This document shows positions 11,380 to 28,236 of a stretch of 64,000 nucleotides of DNA, piece after piece; positions within the stretch are counted from its first letter, which is position 1; every line of letters starts with the position of its first letter. This stretch comes from Candidatus Woesearchaeota archaeon (GTDB lineage: Archaea; Nanobdellota; Nanobdellia; Pacearchaeales; GW2011-AR1). The notes under the pieces were generated by a model, which did no database searches, was not told the origin of the DNA, and saw only the letters and a program-made list of their open reading frames with translations. Made by a program: the position numbers and the translations under genes. The stretch spans positions 2,762 to 66,761 of the forward strand of contig CAZNUV010000005.1 in the NCBI GenBank assembly GCA_964576755.1. Reading direction: 5' to 3'.

Positions 11380-12522
11380 CTATAAAAGTTCTATATTAAA
11401 ATATTTTTCTTGTTCTTTTGAAATAGCAATTCTTGTTAAAAGTTCTTCTGTTAGTCTATTATATATTTCAATATAGCTTTGACCTTCATAAACTCCCCAT
11501 TTGGTATATATATCTATTTGGGAAGAACATTTATTTGACTCATAAAATGAAGAAACACATTTATTTTTATCCCTACACGTTCGATATTTTATCCCTGATA
11601 AAGTTATTTCTGGAGAAAGGATATTTATAAAATTATAATCTACTTCACAGCTGCTCCATGATTCACAAAGAATATCAGGAATACAATTATCTGTTTTTTT
11701 AGAATAACAAGCTATTTTTTCTGGTTTATGATATGTTGTCCCACAGCTATTTTTATCCTTGCAGGAGGGTGTTGAATACTCTGAATTACATTTTGACCAT
11801 TGACATTCCCAATTTTCAGTACAAGAGCCATTACAATATTTTGTAGAACTAGGAATGTTTATAGAGACGATGCAGTTATTTTTATCTTTACATATTCTTT
11901 TCTGTACTCCATTAACACATTCTTCCCAGTTTCCACAATTCCAAGTAGATTTACATTTTAAATCAAGAATTTGATTCTCATTAAATAATTCTTCTGGAAG
12001 AATATCTGCCGCACTTGGACTATAAGGAACAATATCTTCTTCTTTTAATTTTGTAGAAATATCTTGTAAAAAAATTGCAATAGATAGATTAGTATTAGCG
12101 GTTTGACTACAATTTTTAATTATAATTGTTTTAGATTCATTGCATATATTTTTATTTCTGATGGTTCCAGTAAGAAATAATTCTGCTTTGTTTGGATTGA
12201 TTTGTGATGAGGTTTTATATATTTTAAATCCATCATTTTCAGGAAATGTTGTTGATTTGAAATTTTGATTGGAAAACTTTAAATCAAAGTCCTTTAAATT
12301 ATAATCGTCCTCTAATCGTTTTATTGTAAGCATTATATTTTTGGAATCTGGATGATAACATGCTTCTATTTCTAATCTTCTTATATCATTCCAGGGAACA
12401 CAAGATTCTTCATTACTAGCAGATGGCTGTTTTTTAAAATTATTCAATGCAAGATAAATAAAAACAGCAGCAATTAAAATCAGGGATATAATTACTGCAA
12501 TAGTTACTAATTTATTTTTCAT
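11380..12522 (-). CDS. Secreted Cys-rich repeat protein with N-terminal TM anchor
   Basis: 380-aa ORF with N-terminal TM (LVTIAVIISLILIAAVFIYLAL). Three tandem modules of the form C-x3-W-x-C-x2-W-x2-C...C-(K/R)-D-K-N-x-C. Confidence 0.55.
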   Translation of the reverse strand: MKNKLVTIAVIISLILIAAVFIYLALNNFKKQPSASNEESCVPWNDIRRLEIEACYHPDSKNIMLTIKRLEDDYNLKDFDLKFSNQNFKSTTFPENDGFKIYKTSSQINPNKAELFLTGTIRNKNICNESKTIIIKNCSQTANTNLSIAIFLQDISTKLKEEDIVPYSPSAADILPEELFNENQILDLKCKSTWNCGNWEECVNGVQKRICKDKNNCIVSINIPSSTKYCNGSCTENWECQWSKCNSEYSTPSCKDKNSCGTTYHKPEKIACYSKKTDNCIPDILCESWSSCEVDYNFINILSPEITLSGIKYRTCRDKNKCVSSFYESNKCSSQIDIYTKWGVYEGQSYIEIYNRLTEELLTRIAISKEQEKYFNIELL

Positions 12523-12525
12523 ATT

Positions 12526-12981
12526 TTACTCTTTCTTAATAAGAAGGTATCTTTTTTGTTTTATTAATTCAGATATTTCAGATATTACTGATTTAACTTT
12601 ATTGTCTGTAAATCTTTGTTGAGTATAATAGATTTTTAACATTCTTTCACAGAATCTTTGTGCTTCTTCATCTCTAATTTTTTTAAAATATTTGGATAGT
12701 TCTGCATAGTTTGCATTTTCTTTTGTTCCATAAATATCATGAAAGAATTTTTTTGCAACTCTGTCTATTTCAAACATTTTTTTAGAAGTTTGTTTCTTAG
12801 ATTTTGATACTCTTTCAAGATCGATAATATATATTATTTGATTCTTTTTCTTCTTTTTAAATTCAAATTTGAATTTTAATTCTATGATCATTAATATCAC
12901 CGCAGCTGTTAAGGTAATTACTCCTACAGTAATTAGAAGAAAGATTGGGCTTGTAATCACATTCAATACCTCTTTTATCAT
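12526..12981 (-). CDS. Small membrane-anchored hypothetical protein
   Basis: 151-aa ORF with one N-terminal TM helix and a Lys-rich helical remainder. Lies directly upstream (3 nt) of the Cys-rich gene on the same strand. Confidence 0.45.
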   Translation of the reverse strand: MIKEVLNVITSPIFLLITVGVITLTAAVILMIIELKFKFEFKKKKKNQIIYIIDLERVSKSKKQTSKKMFEIDRVAKKFFHDIYGTKENANYAELSKYFKKIRDEEAQRFCERMLKIYYTQQRFTDNKVKSVISEISELIKQKRYLLIKKE

Positions 12982-13097
12982 CCTTGTTATAGGAAATAAG
13001 CATATAAAAATCTTATCAATACTCTATTAAGGTAGAGGTTAATTATTTCATTTTTCATTTCAGTTAAATTTAAAAACTATTTTTGCAAGTTAAAATT

Positions 13098-13340
13098 ATG
13101 GTTAATGGAATAGAAAGACCTTTAGATCTTTTGAATGCATCAAAAGGTAAGGAAATTTTGGTGCAGTTGAAGAATGGTAAGCAACTCGTTGGAACGCTTT
13201 TAGCATTTGATATCCACATTAACGTGGTTTTAGATAATGCGAAAGAAGTTGAAAACAGTGAACAGACAAAGAACTATGGGCTAACCTTTTTACGAGGAGA
13301 TACGATAATTTTTATCTCTCCTTCAAATGTAAAAGAGTAG
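13098..13340 (+). CDS. Sm-like (LSm/SmAP) RNA-binding protein
   Basis: Sm1/Sm2 signature: PLDLLNASKGKEILVQLKNGKQLVGTLLAFDIHINVVLDNA...FLRGDTIIFISP. The ORF track starts at a TTG (13083). The ATG at 13098 is preferred. Confidence 0.85.
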   Translation: MVNGIERPLDLLNASKGKEILVQLKNGKQLVGTLLAFDIHINVVLDNAKEVENSEQTKNYGLTFLRGDTIIFISPSNVKE

Positions 13341-13413
13341 GCGTTGGTCGTGTTTAATTTTCGCTGCGACAGAGATTTTCTCTGTGTTTTAGCTTAAGAT
13401 AGTTTGAACTTTT

Positions 13414-21760: not shown

Positions 21761-22078
21761 TTAAGAACATATTCTTTTTCTGCATTTTTTACATCTCTTC
21801 ATTAGTTCTATTTTATTTTTCTTTTTAGATATTTTTCCAGCTTTAAATATTTTAAATTTAGGTAAGGGAGAATTATGTTTAAATCCCCTTACAATCATTT
21901 CATTGAATATTTCTTTATGCCTTTTAGTTATATTATGGATTTCAATTAAATTATTGGTTATGTATCCTTTAATAGATCTATTTTTATTTAATGTACCCAC
22001 TAACATATGTAATTCTACATGTTCTCCTAATAAGTGCTGATTACACATTTTTTTAGGAGAAATATTCCACATTCTCAT
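21761..22078 (-). CDS. Pyrimidine-dimer DNA glycosylase (DenV)-like family protein
   Basis: N-terminus MRMWNISPKKMCNQHLLGEHVELH resembles the MR(L/I)W...L..QHLLGEH.E signature of this family. Assigned from memory of the motif only. Confidence 0.5.
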   Translation of the reverse strand: MRMWNISPKKMCNQHLLGEHVELHMLVGTLNKNRSIKGYITNNLIEIHNITKRHKEIFNEMIVRGFKHNSPLPKFKIFKAGKISKKKNKIELMKRCKKCRKRICS

Positions 22079-22133
22079 TTTTATTATTTCTCCTAAATAA
22101 AATTTTTTCTTTCAAATAAAAAAATTTATATTT

Positions 22134-22328
22134 TTATTCCTTAGCTACATAATATATCATGTATATTGCTGCAATTCCTACTAGTGAGTAAACTATTCTA
22201 GAGACTACAGACATTGTACCCAACAAGTATGCAACTAAATCAAAGTCTAAAGCACCTTTAAGACCCCAATTCAAACCACCAATGATTACTAAAACTAGTG
22301 CAATCCAATCAAGGGCATTTTTTTTCAT
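22134..22328 (-). CDS. DUF378 small membrane protein
   Basis: 64 aa with two TM helices and the DUF378 hallmark IGGLNWGL. Confidence 0.8.
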   Translation of the reverse strand: MKKNALDWIALVLVIIGGLNWGLKGALDFDLVAYLLGTMSVVSRIVYSLVGIAAIYMIYYVAKE

Positions 22329-22445: not shown

Positions 22446-22459
22446 ATAGCCCCACCAGG
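22446..22459. repeat. 14-bp copy of the tRNA-Gln 3' end (putative distal att site)
   Basis: atagccccaccagg at 22446-22459 is identical to 27775-27788. That stretch covers the T-stem 3' half, acceptor 3' strand, discriminator and one flanking base of tRNA-Gln. Confidence 0.65.
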
Positions 22460-22759
22460 GTCCTGCACCATCGTGACCGTTTCACGGGATATATTTTATT
22501 ATGTTTCGGCTTTATGTTGTCTTGAATTGGGCTTTATTTATAAATCTTGTCGAGAAGGAGTATATGCATTGAAATAGGTAGATGACTATTTCCAAACTAG
22601 AAATAAGTTAATCCATCTCTGAAGTCTTGATTTATGTTTAAGTTTCTCAATTTCTTCCTTTTGTTTTACAATTTCCTGTTCCAAGTCTTGCCTTACCATT
22701 AGCCATGTTTGAGTAATTTTATTTATAAATCTTGTCGAAATAGAATATATGGATTACTT

Positions 22760-23017
22760 TTAAGCTTCTTTATACATCCACATTAGCATAGGCATAACCT
22801 CCTCATTCTTTAGATTATTGACTTTATTTAGCAATTCTTTAAAATCTCTGCAAAAAACAAGTTTATAAGAAAAAGAAGATCTTTTTTCTTTAAGCTGAGG
22901 AAACTCATCAATTATTTCTTTTTTTAGTCTTATAACATTCCAAGACTGAAAACTTTCTGCATAAGCTATTTTTCCTTCAATATCAATTATTCTCTTTGGT
23001 GCAAGTGTTTTTTTCAT
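22760..23017 (-). CDS. Hypothetical protein (element cargo)
   Basis: 85-aa ORF with no recognisable motifs. Confidence 0.35.
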   Translation of the reverse strand: MKKTLAPKRIIDIEGKIAYAESFQSWNVIRLKKEIIDEFPQLKEKRSSFSYKLVFCRDFKELLNKVNNLKNEEVMPMLMWMYKEA

Positions 23018-23145
23018 TCATTCTCCACCACCTCACACCTCTTAAGTTATATAAATATCGATTACATTCAGCTACTTAAACAAGTTTATAAAAATTTTTG
23101 TAAATTCATGCAAAACCTTATAAATTATGCATTGTTTTACAAAAT

Positions 23146-24090
23146 ATGATAGATGAGACAGACAAGCTTATCCTCTTTGAACTACTTCAAGATTGTAGAC
23201 AGCCTCTTTCTAAAATTGCAAAGACAGTAAAACTATCTCAACAAAGAGTTCATTATAGAATAAAGAAACTTGAAGAACAAGGAGTAATAAAAAAATATAC
23301 CATTAACATTAATTATCCAAAACTAGGATATAGTAGACATTCATTATACTTAGATTTGCTAAGTGTCGACGGAAAAGAAGTTGATAAATATCTTAAACAT
23401 ATTACAGACATAAATGAAGTAAGTTGTTGTTATATGCTACATGATGTTTCAGAATGGAAAATGTATATTTCAGTATGGACAAAAAATATTGAGAGATATG
23501 ACGAGATTCAAACTAAAATAATTTCCAAGTTTCATAAACACATTAAAAATTATATTTCTTTTCAGAGTATTCGTTCGCACACTTACTTTGTTGCAAGAAT
23601 GCTCAATAGAAAAAAAGAAGCTAAATGTGATATAAAAGGAAATCCTGAAAATTTTGAATTAAAAGATATTGATTGGAAAATAATAAATAAGTTAAGAAAG
23701 AAGTCTAATATTCCTATTTTAGAATTAGCTAATTCATTAAAAGTAGATGTAAACACTATAAAAAGGAGAATTGATTTTTTACTTAAAGAAAATATTATTG
23801 AAAGATTTTATACCATTCTTGATTTAAAGAAATTAGACTTGAGAGAGTATACTTTTATTTCTAGGATAAACCCTTCACATAATCATGAAATTGAAAAATT
23901 TATAGAATATGCTAAGAAAGATTATCATTTTGGAATTATAATAAAAGCCGTAGGTTATGTTAATCTTTATTATGCTTTTTATGCTAAAGATAATGCAGAA
24001 TTAAAGTCAATAACTGCGAAAGTAGATAAGATGTTAGGTAAAGCAGTTTTACATACATATAAAATTGAAGTTGAGGATATGATTAGCTAA
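23146..24090 (+). CDS. Tandem Lrp/AsnC-type HTH transcriptional regulator
   Basis: Two copies of the Lrp/AsnC HTH pattern (DKLILFELLQDCRQPLSKIAKTVKLSQQRVHYRIKKLEEQGVIKKY and IDWKIINKLRKKSNIPILELANSLKVDVNTIKRRIDFLLKENIIERF). Each is followed by an RAM-like segment. Confidence 0.7.
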   Translation: MIDETDKLILFELLQDCRQPLSKIAKTVKLSQQRVHYRIKKLEEQGVIKKYTININYPKLGYSRHSLYLDLLSVDGKEVDKYLKHITDINEVSCCYMLHDVSEWKMYISVWTKNIERYDEIQTKIISKFHKHIKNYISFQSIRSHTYFVARMLNRKKEAKCDIKGNPENFELKDIDWKIINKLRKKSNIPILELANSLKVDVNTIKRRIDFLLKENIIERFYTILDLKKLDLREYTFISRINPSHNHEIEKFIEYAKKDYHFGIIIKAVGYVNLYYAFYAKDNAELKSITAKVDKMLGKAVLHTYKIEVEDMIS

Positions 24091-24184
24091 GAAATGAGAA
24101 TAATAATAAAATCTTATTGTGTTACCTCTTATAAGATACAACAAAAACAAAAGATTTAAATACCTTAATTTCTAAGATAAATGC

Positions 24185-24838
24185 ATGGGATTAAACTTAA
24201 ACGGAACAAGAGAACCATACAAAGAATTTTATGGTAGAAATACAGATCAAATGTCAGCTTTAATAGCTGATGCTAGAGTTCCAATGAATGTTTCTCAATT
24301 AATGCAAAAAAGACTTGATGTAAGAAATGCTGATGCAAAAGTTAAATCTGCTTGGATTGATAATTATTTTGATTCAGGAGATGCAGTTGTTTATCATCCT
24401 AACGGAGATGTAAAAGTTGTTCTTGATTCTCAAACATTAAGAGAAATGACTCCTGAAACTCAGAGAAATGGCGGAGCATTAGTTATTGGAGAAGAAGTTT
24501 ATCAAGCATTACAAGGTGAAATATTCAAGAAAGGAAAACTAGGAAAAATAAATGAATGGCTTACAAGAGCACAAGTTAAAGCTCACCCTGTTTGGAAAGT
24601 TTTAGCAAGAGGTCAAACATTACTTAATGATTATACTGATTTTACAGCTGGAGAATATCAAGCAAGATTTGCAAAAGATACACCTTTAGATGATATAACA
24701 ATAATGGGATTTTTCCCAGGTTCTTGTGGCGGAAAGTCTCCAGAAATGCGGGCGTTCTATGTCTATGGGCTTGAGTACGGGTCTGATGTCATTGGCGGGG
24801 GTGCCTTGACTGGTGGCTTGGTCGTCTTGTTGGGTTAG
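24185..24838 (+). CDS. DGR variable (target) protein, apparently truncated by a 1-nt deletion in the VR
   Basis: 217-aa ORF whose last 30 codons are the VR. No signal peptide or TM helix. A stop-free continuation in the +1 frame runs to 24996. Confidence 0.75.
   Translation: MGLNLNGTREPYKEFYGRNTDQMSALIADARVPMNVSQLMQKRLDVRNADAKVKSAWIDNYFDSGDAVVYHPNGDVKVVLDSQTLREMTPETQRNGGALVIGEEVYQALQGEIFKKGKLGKINEWLTRAQVKAHPVWKVLARGQTLLNDYTDFTAGEYQARFAKDTPLDDITIMGFFPGSCGGKSPEMRAFYVYGLEYGSDVIGGGALTGGLVVLLG
24748..24837 (+). repeat. DGR variable repeat (VR)
   Basis: Aligns with 25182-25272. Every substitution falls at a template adenine (17-18 of 26 A positions). No non-A position is substituted, and there is a single 1-nt indel. 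Confidence 0.85.
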
Positions 24839-24851
24839 CACCGGAGGTGCT
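24837..24851 (+). promoter_or_regulatory. GC-rich hairpin immediately 3' of the VR (IMH/cruciform-like)
   Basis: agcacc-gga-ggtgct forms a 6-bp stem with a 3-nt loop, inside a locally GC-rich stretch (gcaccggaggtgcttagtgcgccgggtagtggtgc). This stretch is absent downstream of the TR. Confidence 0.4.
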
Positions 24852-25181
24852 TAGTGCGCCGGGTAGTGGTGCTTCAGCAGTACAAAAATATACTATGGCA
24901 GATTTACAATCATTAGATGCAGGTATAACTAGATTAGAAGGCATTGTCTTGCCAGAATTAGTAAAACCATTTAGAGATATAAGAAAAAAACTTTAAGTCT
25001 TCTATATAAATTCTTATAAACTCTTTATTTTATTTAAAATTACCTAGCTAACTATGCAACAAGGATGCATGGAGCAGACTAGGCTACATGCTCTTTTACT
25101 AAAGCAGAAATGCTATAAAATACAGCTACAACAGAAATGAAGTGGCAATGAAGATAATTTCAAAGTAGAAGAGCTACTATG

Positions 25182-25272
25182 GCGGGCGTTCTATGTCAAT
25201 AGGCTTGAGAACAGGTCTAATGTCAATGGCAGGAATGACTTGACTAATGACAATGGTCGTCTTGTTGAATAA
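25182..25272 (+). repeat. DGR template repeat (TR)
   Basis: Intergenic copy of the VR, 23 nt upstream of the RT-like ORF. In the VR frame it reads RAFYVNRLENRSNVNGRNDLTNDNGRLVE* with seven AAY codons. Confidence 0.85.
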
Positions 25273-25295
25273 TCTAGTCTGCTGTTAGGATTAAA

Positions 25296-26522
25296 ATGTA
25301 TGAACAACTATGCTCACATGAAAATCTTTTATTAGCTTTTAAAAAAGCAAAAAAAGGAAAGACTAAGAAAGATTATATTATTAAATTTAAACGAAATTTA
25401 GAGAATAATTTAATAACTCTAAGACAGGAATTAATTTCTCAAACATATAAACCAAAACCACTTAAAACATTTATTGTTAGAGATCCAAAAACAAGAAAAA
25501 TTTCTAAATCTAAATTTAGAGATAGAATTATTCATCATGCTTTGATAAATATCATTGGAGAGAATAGCCTCAAAGATTTAATTTCTAAAATTTTAACTAA
25601 ATTAAAGGGTGATCGGGCAAGGGCTAAGATAATTGAAAAACAAATAGAATATACTGAGGATTGGAAAGAGAAAAAAGAAACCTCATTAGATCTTTTAAAT
25701 CATTTAATTGAAAAAAGCTTTATTGATAAGGAAGATATAATTAAACCCCTTGGAACATCTCAGATTTTTGCCCTCTACTGCTTTCCTACTACTCCAATCA
25801 TTTCAAAAAATGGAAAAATAAAGTATAGTTTAAATCGAAGAATTTATCCTAATTTTCTAAAAAAATTGGGTTTTATAAGATTACATCTTAGACGGGGGCT
25901 TTTTTATGTCATCCCTCGTGAAAGATTAATCCCTTCTTTACAAAATACTTTTTACTTGAAGCAGTACATTCTTGAAGAGATCGAAAAAACATTTCCAGTA
26001 GAGTGGGAACGATTTTTAAAGGAGCTTAAAAGGAAAAAAAGTCTATTAAATGAATACAATTCCTATAAAAATAAAAGTTATAAGCAGGAATTAAAATTTA
26101 ACATCTTGCTTTTGAATACAGATATCTCAGAGAATAATGTGGGGTATTTATATGGTGAAAGAACGTTTACCAATGATTTTCATAATTTTCTAAATAATCA
26201 GTTAGACTTAAAAAAATTAAATTTTCCTAGAAGTGTTAAAGCAAACATTAGCGAATATATGAAAAATATCTCTATAGTGTTTTTCTTCAAAGGAGAAAAT
26301 ACTACCAATATACAAAAGATTAATGACGTAGAACCAAAATTAAAGAGTGGGCTTTCAATAATCAAATGGACAGATTATTTGGATAAGAATCAAGAAGAAA
26401 TTGCATCTATATTTAAATTGGGTAATCTATCCGAATCTCGAGCAAAAAAATACTCAGAATTATTAATCAAAAAGATTGAAGTATATAGAAATGCCCTTAG
26501 AGAATTAAGAATTAATCTATAA
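25296..26522 (+). CDS. DGR-type reverse-transcriptase-like protein (N-terminal RT motifs present, no YxDD seen)
   Basis: Residues 1-90 match the DGR/retron-type RT N-terminus (ENLLLAFKKAKKGK...YKPKPLKTFIVRDPKTRKISKSKFRDRIIHHALINII). Later there is only faint colinearity (PLGTSQIFALY versus the canonical GxxxSQ motif). No DD pair occurs anywhere in the 408 aa. Confidence 0.65.
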   Translation: MYEQLCSHENLLLAFKKAKKGKTKKDYIIKFKRNLENNLITLRQELISQTYKPKPLKTFIVRDPKTRKISKSKFRDRIIHHALINIIGENSLKDLISKILTKLKGDRARAKIIEKQIEYTEDWKEKKETSLDLLNHLIEKSFIDKEDIIKPLGTSQIFALYCFPTTPIISKNGKIKYSLNRRIYPNFLKKLGFIRLHLRRGLFYVIPRERLIPSLQNTFYLKQYILEEIEKTFPVEWERFLKELKRKKSLLNEYNSYKNKSYKQELKFNILLLNTDISENNVGYLYGERTFTNDFHNFLNNQLDLKKLNFPRSVKANISEYMKNISIVFFFKGENTTNIQKINDVEPKLKSGLSIIKWTDYLDKNQEEIASIFKLGNLSESRAKKYSELLIKKIEVYRNALRELRINL

Positions 26523-26529
26523 AATACAT

Positions 26530-27687
26530 TTAACTTTCATTCCCCACAATCATAACACCCTTTTTAACAAGCTGGGCAATAACCTTCATCTGCTTTTCCA
26601 AAACATCAACACGTTCTTTTAAAATTTCTTTTTCATTTTCTGATCTAGCAAGTTGCTTTTCAATCTCTGTCTTTGTAACATCTACTAACATATCTTCCTC
26701 ACTAATAGTATCTCTCATGCCCAAAAACTCAGAATAATAATGAATCTCTTCTGATTTTTTCCAACCGAATCTATACTTTAAAGCAGATTCAGATTTATAC
26801 CTTGGAAGCCAATAACAGCAACTATTATGTCTAAAATCATATAAGGATAGTTTGGAATAATTTTCTCCTGCGGGACTTATTTTATCCCCAAGAACTCTCT
26901 TTGCTAATCTTTTCAAGTAGCGGTTTACAACCTGCGAACAGACGCTGAATAAATAATCACTTGATTCAAGATTTTTAGTTTTTACATACTCTTTAATAAG
27001 TTCTGAACAGAGCATTAATTTTATTCTTCTTCCAAAAGTTTTGCTCACTTCCTCTCTTATCTTTAATTCTTTGAAATCATTAAAAAAGTCTGAAACTTTA
27101 ACATTCACTAATTCTGTTGGAGACCTTATCCCTGTGTCAAATACAAACATCATCATCACCTTATATTCATGTTTCGATTCATCACATAATTTTTTCACTT
27201 CTTCTTCAGTTAAATAAACCCATTTTGGTTTTTCTGTTCTTGAATCAAGATCTAGGGTAATATCTGTAATTTCTATCTTCTGTTTTTTGCTTACTTTTTG
27301 ATGCCAGTGCCAGAATGCTTTGAAAACCTTCCCTTGAGTTTCAAGAGAGGTGTATGATTTTCCATCCACCCTCTTTATTCCCCCATTTCTCATCTCTGCA
27401 AAGAAAGTAATAATCTGATCTTCATTAACTTCTGTTAGCTTAATTACTCCATAAAATTCCTCAAATTTTTTAGCAAAGAATATCATCTTCTCCTTTAATG
27501 TAAAAAGTCTAGCAAAAGTTCTTGGACCCCTTAAACTCCCTGTTGCTATATTCAAACCTTTTTCCATATCATTAAGATATCTTAGAATTATTTCAGAATT
27601 CTCTACAGAAATATCTGGAATTCTATCTTTAACTCTTTCTTTCCATTTAAGGTATCTTTCTTTATGTTTCCACGGATCTATTTTCAT
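26530..27687 (-). CDS. Tyrosine recombinase / integrase
   Basis: Catalytic-domain pattern: FDTGIRSPTEL (Arg I), LYDFRHNSCCY (box II Arg-His), and FGW...IHYYSEF (GH/W...Y). Has a coiled-coil C-terminal tail. Sits next to the tRNA-Gln att site. Confidence 0.75.
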   Translation of the reverse strand: MKIDPWKHKERYLKWKERVKDRIPDISVENSEIILRYLNDMEKGLNIATGSLRGPRTFARLFTLKEKMIFFAKKFEEFYGVIKLTEVNEDQIITFFAEMRNGGIKRVDGKSYTSLETQGKVFKAFWHWHQKVSKKQKIEITDITLDLDSRTEKPKWVYLTEEEVKKLCDESKHEYKVMMMFVFDTGIRSPTELVNVKVSDFFNDFKELKIREEVSKTFGRRIKLMLCSELIKEYVKTKNLESSDYLFSVCSQVVNRYLKRLAKRVLGDKISPAGENYSKLSLYDFRHNSCCYWLPRYKSESALKYRFGWKKSEEIHYYSEFLGMRDTISEEDMLVDVTKTEIEKQLARSENEKEILKERVDVLEKQMKVIAQLVKKGVMIVGNES

Positions 27688-27775
27688 CTTAGCATAAAAC
27701 CCACCTGATTTATATTTTCGTGGCGGATTTATGCCGAAACAAACCTGAACCCTTGATTTTGGTCAAAAGGGTAAA

Positions 27776-27848
27776 TAGCCCCACCAGGATTCGAACCTGG
27801 GTCACAAGGTTCAGAACCTCGTATGCTTGACCACTACACTATGGGGCT
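27776..27848 (-). tRNA. tRNA-Gln (CTG)
   Basis: Minus-strand cloverleaf. Acceptor AGCCCCA/TGGGGCT (the A1-U72 pair is typical of archaeal tRNA-Gln), anticodon stem CGAGG/CCTTG with loop TTCTGAA, T-arm CCAGG-TTCGAAT-CCTGG. Confidence 0.85.
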
Positions 27849-27863
27849 ATAAGACAACCTAAC

Positions 27864-27983
27864 GGTTTTCTTATGAACTTTCCCTTGAGATTGCCTGATT
27901 GACAACTAAGGTTTTCTTATGAACTTTCCCTTGAGATTGCCTGATTGACAAATAAGGTTTTCTTATGAACTTTCCCTTGAGAT
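27864..27983. repeat. 46-bp tandem repeat, about 2.6 copies, upstream of tRNA-Gln
   Basis: Copies start at 27864, 27910 and 27956 (ggttttcttatgaactttcccttgagattgcctgattgacaa[c/a]taa). The two full copies differ at one base. The third diverges after gagat. Confidence 0.85.
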
Positions 27984-28055
27984 AGTCCAACAACCTTAGA
28001 TTTATAAAAAATCAGGTAAAGCAAACTTTATAAAGCTATTTTTTGATATTCTCAT

Positions 28056-28166
28056 ATGAAAAGATCAAGCAGAAGGTGGAAAAAGAAAAGACAAATGCGT
28101 TGGAAATGGCAACGTAAGAGATTAAAGAAAGAAAAAAGAAAAAGAAAATTAAAAAGAAGTAGATAG
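28056..28166 (+). CDS. rpl41e: Ribosomal protein L41e (36 aa)
   Basis: MKRSSRRWKKKRQMRWKWQRKRLKKEKRKRKLKRSR is an extremely basic Arg/Lys/Trp peptive typical of eL41. A TATA-like ctttataaag lies about 25 nt upstream. Too short for the ORF track. Confidence 0.6.
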   Translation: MKRSSRRWKKKRQMRWKWQRKRLKKEKRKRKLKRSR

Positions 28167-28236
28167 TTCTATATTTGTTTGGTTTAATATATTCTTATCA
28201 CAATAATCTTTATAAAAATACAAAACAAGAAATTTT

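Follow-up and report, generated by a model that had tools for sequence, protein, structure and literature searches.

The tRNA-Gln locus and its integrase

The 64-kb stretch of DNA analysed here (64,000 nucleotides of contig CAZNUV010000005.1; at its full length, the window) belongs to an archaeon with a GC content of about 30% and encodes the tRNA-splicing endonuclease EndA, the small and large subunits of replication factor C (RFC), S17e and Alba. The nearest relatives by the RFC small subunit (RFC-S) are metagenome-assembled genomes labelled Pace-/Woesearchaeota or Nanoarchaeota, and the host is a DPANN archaeon. Between positions 22446 and 27788, the window holds a 5.3-kb interval that starts and ends with a copy of a tRNA-Gln 3′ end and that contains a tyrosine integrase gene and the remains of a diversity-generating retroelement (DGR). 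The features that delimit this interval, named in terms of attachment (att) sites, are as follows.

22446..22459, no strand: attR core, a second, displaced tRNA-Gln 3′ end (repeat search)
22460..22500, no strand: attR-proximal arm, a GC-rich stretch with one short hairpin; the 15 nt beside the core resemble the arm GATGGTnnAGnGAC of the related contig L109
26530..27687, minus strand: full-length tyrosine integrase, 385 aa (Pfam PF00589, E 8.5e-9; phrog_1, integrase)
27688..27774, minus strand: attL arm and integrase upstream region, about 88 nt (compared with L109, L094, L091 and L106)
27775..27788, no strand: attL core, the 14-bp direct repeat ATAGCCCCACCAGG, which reads CCTGGTGGGGCTAT on the tRNA strand
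27776..27848, minus strand: intact tRNA-Gln(CTG), the presumed integration target (ARAGORN 27775-27849; Rfam RF00005 27776-27848, 65 bits)

The 14-mer had been reported at two places in an earlier interpretation made from the letters alone (the sequence-only reading), and we recovered both copies, at 22446-22459 and 27775-27788, and none other in the window, even with three mismatches allowed; none of 100 dinucleotide-preserving shuffles yielded two matches at two or fewer mismatches. Because the 14-mer occurs only twice, it is not a dispersed repeat, a possibility that the same reading had raised against itself. On the tRNA strand, it comprises the final 13 nt of tRNA-Gln and 1 nt beyond, and these 13 tRNA nucleotides are 5 nt of the T-stem, 7 nt of the acceptor stem and the discriminator. 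As had also been stated, an intact tRNA-Gln(CTG) accompanies one copy and none the other: ARAGORN, Rfam and inspection of the sequence revealed no tRNA sequence around the copy at 22446. The last 13 nt of tRNA-Gln(CTG) would now come from the attL core.

The claim of a complete tyrosine recombinase gene 88 nt from the tRNA holds as well. The PF00589 (Phage_integrase) match spans positions 2-166 of 172 profile positions, nearly the whole domain, and the gene has the same orientation as the tRNA, with 88 nt between its start and the tRNA end. The integrase is not of the gene-splitting SSV type, given that its ORF is unsplit and begins 88 nt beyond the core. The arm between them holds AAATATAAAT, a TATA-like box about 25 nt ahead of the integrase ATG, which may act as a promoter. 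Among the residues that are invariant in the family are R188, K216, R286, W309 and Y318, the putative catalytic set.

The homology search proposed for the integrase returned 2330 homologues in the database, and in more than 120 protein clusters the full-length identity is 62-88%. Six homologues were inspected in their contig context (N-terminally extended integrase ORF calls gave no information on tRNA adjacency).

P0001, 88% identical, L091-93: downstream of tRNA-Gln(CTG); cargo of unassigned ORFs and a methyltransferase gene
P0002, 85% identical, L106-108: downstream of a tRNA-Gln(TTG) read as intron-containing; cargo of CTD12/MC6-8/DUF2326 defence-like genes, a methyltransferase, a TrbC pilin and a 974-aa TraC/VirB4-like ATPase
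P0005, 78% identical, L094-96: downstream of tRNA-Gln(TTG); cargo of a nucleotidyltransferase gene and a 130-aa ORF
P0008, 73% identical, L109: downstream of tRNA-Gln(CTG); cargo of a DGR
L110 integrase, 68% identical (partial gene, reached via a P0122 look-up): contig too short for tRNA adjacency; P0122 gene and methyltransferase gene
P0016, 67% identical, L097: no recognisable tRNA-Gln adjacent

Thus, four further genome contexts have an integrase homologue, 73-88% identical, immediately after tRNA-Gln, and the cargo differs in each. The sequence of about 88 nt from the tRNA end to the integrase ATG is conserved in all four, including a AAATATAAA box, and in related elements the blastn match is continuous across tRNA and integrase. 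Cognate repeats are present as well. In L109, a 15-nt repeat of the same tRNA positions, CCTGGTGGGGCTATT, lies 4.6 kb downstream; in L094, a 13-nt repeat, CTGGCGGGGCTAT, lies 2.5 kb downstream and covers the same tRNA positions in its own tRNA's sequence (C instead of T). The attR sides of L109 and the window also resemble each other, both in the core-adjacent arms (GATGGTAAGAGAC and GATGGTGCAGGAC, respectively) and in a TCTCGACAAnnTTTAnAAAT motif about 100 nt inside attR. We conclude that this is a large and unusually conserved DPANN integrase family with a constant arm of about 88 nt and a cargo that changes between elements, and it appears to target tRNA-Gln of both isoacceptor types. The earlier proposal of site-specific integration at a tRNA 3′ end agrees with these findings, in that the same integrase family, the attL arm and repeats of 13-15 nt recur in the relatives.

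It could be argued that the second 14-mer is a chance match beside a housekeeping Xer-type recombinase and that no mobile element exists here, given that the integrase family is highly conserved and that XerA is the best match of the integrase in both NCBIfam and the PDB. However, the score against the XerA model (NF040815) is 43.8 bits, compared with a cut-off of 220, and the gene lacks a conserved position: of the 80 RFC-S loci compared in relatives, only L053 contains an integrase homologue, a fragment at a contig end that lies next to tRNA-Gln(CTG) and has 48% identity over about 190 residues. None of the shuffles produced a second copy, and cognate repeats exist in L109 and L094. The shared arm, these cognate repeats and the likeness of the attR arms make a chance repeat or a housekeeping recombinase untenable, and we give this explanation almost no credence. 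We therefore regard it as probable that positions 22446-27788 are an integrated mobile element of 5.3 kb at the 3′ end of tRNA-Gln, with a DGR as its main cargo.

The stretch at 22455-22495 had been described as GC-rich structured DNA, a description that did not survive folding. It contains a single 6-bp hairpin, is partly conserved with the L109 attR arm and folds no better than shuffled sequence (z = -0.14); we rejected it as a structured RNA or a split-tRNA piece.

Two side observations concern the relatives. At L106 9821-9913 and L107 216-308, ARAGORN calls a 93-nt tRNA-Phe(gaa), which by our reading is probably a tRNA-Gln(TTG) with an anticodon-loop intron of about 20 nt. It shares its 3′ end with the window tRNA and is the attachment site of the integrase that is 85% identical. 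In L094, a second integrase ORF, distinct from the first and 354 aa long (12293-13357), contains the 13-nt attR repeat 166 nt into its length; an earlier integration of the gene-splitting SSV type at this tRNA-Gln may have left such a remnant.

A DGR remnant and a chimeric gene

From attR to attL, the element is made up of the arm, two 38-nt repeats around a 37-aa ORF, p85, the Lrp gene, the DGR target gene with its variable repeat (VR), the RT-16 RNA motif, the template repeat (TR), ORF408 and the integrase gene. The reverse transcriptase (RT) is represented only within ORF408. The interior features are listed below.

22533-22570 and 22718-22755, no strand: two 38-nt direct repeats with the TATA-like core ATTTATAAATCTTGTCGAGA (same motif attR-proximal in L109)
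22586-22699, minus strand: called ORF of 37 aa between the 38-nt repeats (gene call in L001)
22760..23017, minus strand: p85, an 85-aa protein of a small family (homologue comparison)
23146..24090, plus strand: tandem Lrp/AsnC regulator, 314 aa, with two HTH_AsnC domains (Pfam; NCBIfam LrpA-like)
24185..24996, plus strand: DGR target gene, a pseudogene (alignment with the intact 266-aa target of L105)
25043..25182, plus strand: RT-16 RNA motif (Rfam RF03019; 65.6 bits, gathering score 50)
25182..25267, plus strand: TR, 86 nt (TR/VR comparison)
25296..25559, plus strand: DGR RT remnant, the first ~89 codons, with no catalytic motifs (RT homology and PHROG)
25560..26522, plus strand: 3′ part of ORF408, a P0122-family protein (68% identity to P0122 residues 57-376)

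Comparison of the VR (24748-24832) with the TR revealed 14 substitutions, all 14 at TR adenines, and a 1-nt deletion that likewise falls on a TR adenine. Because every substitution lies at a TR adenine, the DGR was active in the past; no further TR/VR pair and no second VR was found in the window. The VR is contained in the target ORF (24185-24838; 217 aa), which is 60-61% identical to the targets in L105 and L109 and gave no Pfam or PDB match. Owing to the 1-nt deletion inside the VR, this ORF ends at 24838 and its tail is out of frame; the 49-aa ORF at 24847-24996 is the conserved C-terminal tail (…SAVQKYTMADLQ…RKKL). The 217-aa ORF was also called in the independent assemblies L001, L002 and L006, where the DNA of this region is at least 99.97% identical to the window.

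The RT-16 motif is located directly upstream of the TR, with the same placement in L109, L102 and L105, and is thus a conserved component of the DGR lineage. In all four DGRs, it lies between the target stop codon and the TR (L109 2697-2833, L102 6643-6802 and L105 2585-2792, in addition to the window copy), which links this otherwise orphan motif to the TR-containing DGR RNA of DPANN archaea.

The 408-aa ORF that had been described as RT-like is an in-frame chimera, in which the RT share is 22%. Residues 1-89 are 74% identical to residues 1-89 of P0132, an intact RT of 471 aa, and 83% identical to the RT of L105. The PHROG RT match is limited to the same residues, the nucleotide homology to the L105 DGR ends at 25559, and ORF408 as a whole gave no Pfam RVT_1 match; there is no other RT fragment and no second RT anywhere in the window. 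Residues 89-408 correspond to residues 57-376 of the P0122-P0128 family. This part gave no Pfam, NCBIfam or PHROG match, and its AlphaFold2 (AF2) model, with a predicted local distance difference test (pLDDT) score of 75, had no significant fold match in the PDB. The P0122-like part stands here without its two N-terminal hydrophobic helices, which in P0122 are likely membrane-spanning, and the catalytic part of the RT was also removed by the fusion. The window DGR is thus a remnant, a fossil with its RT lost and its target frameshifted, and it provides a clean natural example of the death of a DGR, in which the last VR state was frozen with a frameshift at an adenine. The cargo list of the sequence-only reading was therefore right for the Lrp regulator, the small ORF, the target and the TR, although it had missed the 37-aa ORF, the 49-aa ORF has turned out to be the target tail and the RT-like ORF is RT only in its N-terminal part.

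Related DGRs place this remnant in context. The closest is that of L105, with 84% nucleotide identity over the TR and the RT N-terminus; about 280 nt separate the end of its RT gene from a tRNA-Gln(CTG) 3′ end, with a methyltransferase fragment and a 48-aa integrase fragment on the other side. L102 carries the DGR with the closest intact RT, starting 93 nt after a tRNA-Asp. In L109, the 4.6 kb between the repeats hold no more than the integrase, an ORF of 66 aa, a target with 61% identity to that of the window, RT-16, the TR/VR pair and an inverted RT, in a gene order unlike that of the window; the frameshifts in L109 may be long-read errors. On this comparison, the DGR lineage recurs in tRNA 3′ flanks, twice inside att-bounded integrase elements.

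As a separate observation, RT genes of this DGR lineage are repeatedly called as two ORFs, broken at a run of glycine codons near residue 190 (sequences 'SPIGGGG' and 'RPSGGGA'; examples are L105 3387-3511, L109 3801-3810, P0129-P0131 and P0147). The split is present in contigs of several independent assemblies, and its cause could be repeated decay into pseudogenes, sequencing error in a homopolymer, or control of RT expression by programmed frameshifting or slippage.

The origin of the chimera bears on how the element was assembled. In L110, a P0122 gene is arranged tail-to-tail with the 68%-identical integrase gene, as in the window, with 72% nucleotide identity over 1457 nt. Since this pair is found in both, we deduce that the integrase and the P0122-like gene form a backbone module of the element. 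The RT and P0122-like genes point the same way, so that one in-frame deletion suffices to account for the fusion, and the element is a deletion derivative. Rather than being a minimal element in its original state, it may also combine two modules. One such course of events, which we judge possible though rather unlikely, is that a DGR element integrated first at tRNA-Gln, that an integrase/P0122-like element later integrated into the regenerated tRNA end, and that a fusing deletion finally took out the inner att site together with the first integrase and most of the RT gene, so that the present integrase was not the carrier of the DGR. The exact fusion of the RT N-terminus and the P0122-like gene in ORF408 is in keeping with such a tandem integration, as are the self-contained, conserved integrase/P0122-like pair in L110, the position of the L105 DGR immediately next to tRNA-Gln, where no intact integrase intervenes, and the tandem or relic att copies in L058, L091 and L094. 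However, a single internal deletion explains the fusion of the co-oriented genes equally well, L109 has one integrase and one DGR within one repeat pair, and no relic inner core remains. The junction sequence AATAGCC at 25563, a candidate secondary att site, was rejected: it is coding sequence in which the codons N-S-L align with S-S-L of the L110 P0122 gene, and the 9-mer AATAGCCYC is not rare. Given the chimeric interior, the DGR and the present integrase may have arrived together or separately. The notion of a minimal vehicle with a DGR as its payload is upheld in part, by the position of the DGR inside an integrase element and by the L109 relative, but the window copy is broken and derived by deletion, and it cannot serve as a functional vehicle for hypervariation.

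In line with the sequence-only reading, which had recognised no capsid or conjugation genes, scans of the element with Pfam, NCBIfam and PHROG found no type IV secretion or conjugation genes, so that it is not an integrative and conjugative element (ICE), and those with Pfam and PHROG found no capsid, portal or terminase genes. PHROG matches were limited to the integrase and the RT N-terminus. We considered whether the element might be the remnant of an integrated archaeal virus that lost its structural genes. The first DGRs known came from phages, a DGR of an archaeal virus has been reported, and P0122-like genes lie amid many small ORFs in L098-L100. A viral origin is nevertheless very improbable: besides the absence of capsid, portal and terminase genes, the integrase, the target and the P0122-like protein have no relatives in 2.9 million IMG/VR contigs, and a close relative of the integrase sits with type IV secretion genes, which argues for a conjugative rather than a viral family.

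The Lrp gene, which is either cargo or regulatory, matched HTH_24 (3.8e-22) and HTH_AsnC (4.9e-19) in Pfam, over two stretches each. p85 gave no Pfam, NCBIfam or PHROG match, and its AF2 model (pLDDT 72) had no significant PDB match. Homologues of p85 flank DGR target genes in L102-L104, and another adjoins an Lrp gene near the integrase homologue in L097 (L102 5457-5651, 8444-8638 and 9802-10071; L097 13782-14078). In L102, a p85 homologue lies ahead of each of two RT-adjacent genes, of 288 and 286 aa, that are putative DGR targets. Judging from these neighbourhoods, p85 may be a DGR accessory protein or a regulator of the element. The two 38-nt repeats with their TATA-like core are candidate promoters.

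Occupancy of the tRNA-Gln site

The 80 RFC-S loci contain 32 tRNA-Gln genes and show the site in different states. In L034 and L036 (RFC-S 82-84% identical), EndA is followed by tRNA-Gln and RFC-S and is separated from the tRNA 3′ end by only 8-55 nt, and in L015 and L028 unrelated genes are found at the position next to tRNA-Gln. A DGR, target or p85 occurs at this position in none of the 80 loci. We also scanned JGI metagenome contigs and GTDB genomes for junctions with a degenerate 45-nt IUPAC pattern that matches attL, attR, attB and attP. The search for empty sites and circular forms that had been suggested thus gave relatives without an insert beside tRNA-Gln, none of them an exact empty site, and the contig scans yielded no attB or attP of this strain. 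One Logan contig, L009 from SRR8437287, breaks off precisely at 22459, the final base common to attR and a hypothetical attB; this end fits a branch of a de Bruijn graph between occupied and empty sites and is suggestive only.

Several points weigh against the reading of 22446-27788 as an integrated element. First, all nine same-strain contigs carry the insert at the tRNA-Gln site, and no copy is unoccupied; the junction scan returned only the strain's own attL contig in JGI and nothing in GTDB; and L034 and L036 fall short of exact empty sites in that they also lack the two genes that neighbour the element in the window, for DUF378 and for pyrimidine-dimer glycosylase (Pyr_excise). Second, the identity of the cores is short, at 14 bp, and the composition is alike inside and outside: the comparison of GC that had been recommended gave 0.300 within the element and 0.297 outside, that is, no difference. 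Third, the interior has been rearranged, as the chimeric ORF shows. Finally, the identity across the integrase clusters is unusually high for a mobile-element integrase, and the homologue P0016 in L097 is one without a recognisable tRNA-Gln beside it.

Some of these points would be expected if the DGR, the Lrp gene and p85 were old chromosomal genes near a tRNA hotspot and the 14-mer at 22446 were the scar of an unrelated element: the GC content does not differ from that of the host, the scans revealed no empty site in this strain, and the region adjacent to tRNA-Gln is variable in all relatives. We consider this explanation improbable. It is at odds with the absence of the DGR, the target and p85 from this position in all 80 loci, with the occurrence of homologous DGRs in att-bounded elements or beside tRNAs, among unrelated flanks (L109, L105 and L102), and with the conservation of the attR arm in L109. 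The GC content at third codon positions (GC3) is 0.259 in the integrase gene and 0.208 in ORF408, compared with a background of 0.155 ± 0.018, and is not raised in the Lrp gene; the raised values weakly support a foreign origin.

An integrated element at this position would also be in keeping with the general use of the site. In 6 of the 32 tRNA-Gln genes, and in L091-93, a repeat of 10-22 nt of the gene's own 3′ end is found within 45-160 nt, and from such short-range repeats we deduce that the site is often used. One of the six, L020, is a tandem duplication beside an assembly gap and probably an artefact; in the other five (L046, L054, L058, L041 and L012) and in L091-93, a repeat of 10-16 nt lies within 85-160 nt downstream. 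The enclosed unit of about 110-130 nt is conserved in L046, L054, L058 and L091, with two tandem units in L058, and contains the motif ...TGATGAGAACCTnARGGTTCGAYGAGCA, a long hairpin and then GCGAGCAC. The unit is a candidate miniature integrative element of the non-autonomous kind or, alternatively, a small RNA linked to the tRNA.

The flanks of the element show two further peculiarities. Just outside attR, at 21761-22328, lie the DUF378 and Pyr_excise genes, which are absent from this place in all relatives examined and may have been left by an earlier insertion into this hotspot. On the other side, a 46-bp tandem repeat (2.8 copies; 27853-27983) lies immediately upstream of the 5′ end of tRNA-Gln. 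It is strain-specific, with three copies of the motif in the window and two in the assemblies L001 and L002; several contigs break at it, and a 17-nt piece of its unit recurs, 88% identical, inside the integrase gene at 27325-27341. When L002 1-442 (ERZ27248895) is set against window 27901-28170, the identity, 99.97% over the element and the left flank, drops to 95% over a small basic-protein gene upstream of the tRNA, which we take to be that of ribosomal protein L41e, and then vanishes. This drop is either a recombination breakpoint between strains or a chimeric join at the 46-bp repeat.

Proposed history and comparison with known systems

By what steps could the element have reached its present state? 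The integrase would have recombined attP with attB, the 3′ end of tRNA-Gln(CTG), across an identical core of about 14 bp. The tRNA end would thereby have been rebuilt from element DNA, as attL (27775-27788), and the displaced original end would have been left 5.3 kb away, as attR (22446-22459). One in-frame deletion would have joined RT codon ~89 to P0122-like codon ~57, with the loss of the RT catalytic domain and the intervening DNA, and a 1-nt deletion at the position of a TR adenine frameshifted the target. Because the integrase gene and both att cores are intact, excision may still occur, and in the circular form the promoter-like repeat near attR would read across attP toward the integrase gene. 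Having no transfer or replication genes of its own, the element would need help to spread between cells; candidate helpers would be sister elements of the same family with type IV secretion genes, of the L106 type.

We tentatively propose, as a possibility short of an expectation, that DPANN archaea harbour a tRNA-Gln-specific family of elements, so far undescribed and founded on a single highly conserved integrase and att arm, in which L109 and the ancestor of the window element were 'DGR cartridges' of 4.6-5.3 kb with a complete DGR as their sole sizeable cargo, mobilised in trans by sisters with type IV secretion. DGRs are abundant but patchy in DPANN archaea and in bacteria of the candidate phyla radiation (CPR), and their movement between these reduced genomes has not been established. 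The locus and its relatives provide a concrete vehicle, with a conserved integrase, a 13-15-bp tRNA-Gln core and conserved att arms, and also snapshots of a life cycle: the compact DGR-only element of L109, the sisters with type IV secretion in L106, and decayed copies in the window and in L105. If the cartridge proposal is correct, a dedicated route for the spread of targeted hypermutation among ultra-small archaea would exist, and the patchy distribution of DGRs in DPANN lineages would be explained.

The mechanism is classical; the cargo and the host are new. Our literature search found no description of this integrase family, of DPANN tRNA-Gln elements or of archaeal DGR-only integrative elements, nor of DPANN/CPR DGRs as cargo of tRNA-Gln integrase elements. 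A review of archaeal tyrosine recombinases (PMC8371274) does not include this family and does not mention DPANN or Nanoarchaeota. The advance is incremental, because DGRs on tRNA-integrating elements are already known in bacteria.

The closest structural parallels are the tRNA islands with an intact tyrosine integrase, namely, the lambda- and P4-like islands of bacteria and the pNOB8-type ('type II') integrative elements of archaea. The window element shares with them the placement of the integrase beside the regenerated tRNA 3′ end, the short direct repeat that copies the tRNA end at the distal boundary, the unsplit integrase gene, the variable cargo and the frequency of decay products. It differs from them in its DPANN host, in an integrase family apparently dedicated to tRNA-Gln and in the 62-88% conservation of that family.

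In cargo, the nearest counterparts are the DGR-carrying ICEs of Bacteroides, integrated at tRNA-Lys (bioRxiv 10.1101/2024.11.15.621889), and, as far as the discussion in PMC5758913 goes, the genomic-island DGR of Legionella pneumophila Corby. In these, too, a DGR is the cargo of an integrase element at a tRNA, flanked by direct repeats, which provides a horizontal route. The Bacteroides elements carry conjugation (tra) genes, and their excision has been shown experimentally, whereas the window element is 5.3 kb long (4.6 kb in L109), has no transfer genes, resides in an archaeal host and contains an inactivated DGR. In size and economy, the element resembles integrative mobilizable elements and the 'tycheposons' of Prochlorococcus, which, to the extent that they are outlined in bioRxiv 10.1101/2020.12.28.424599, are small and combine a tyrosine recombinase, a tRNA target and modular cargo. 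This likeness is functional only; transfer is presumably effected by other elements, and the cargo of the window element differs in being a DGR.

Finally, the cassette itself is that of the DPANN/CPR DGRs (Paul et al. 2017, as cited in PMC5758913): within the outline given there, it has the same small target, C-terminal VR and adenine-specific TR/VR differences. The intact relative P0132 has the HTH_40 tail of the RTs of such DGRs, whereas the window copy has lost its RT.

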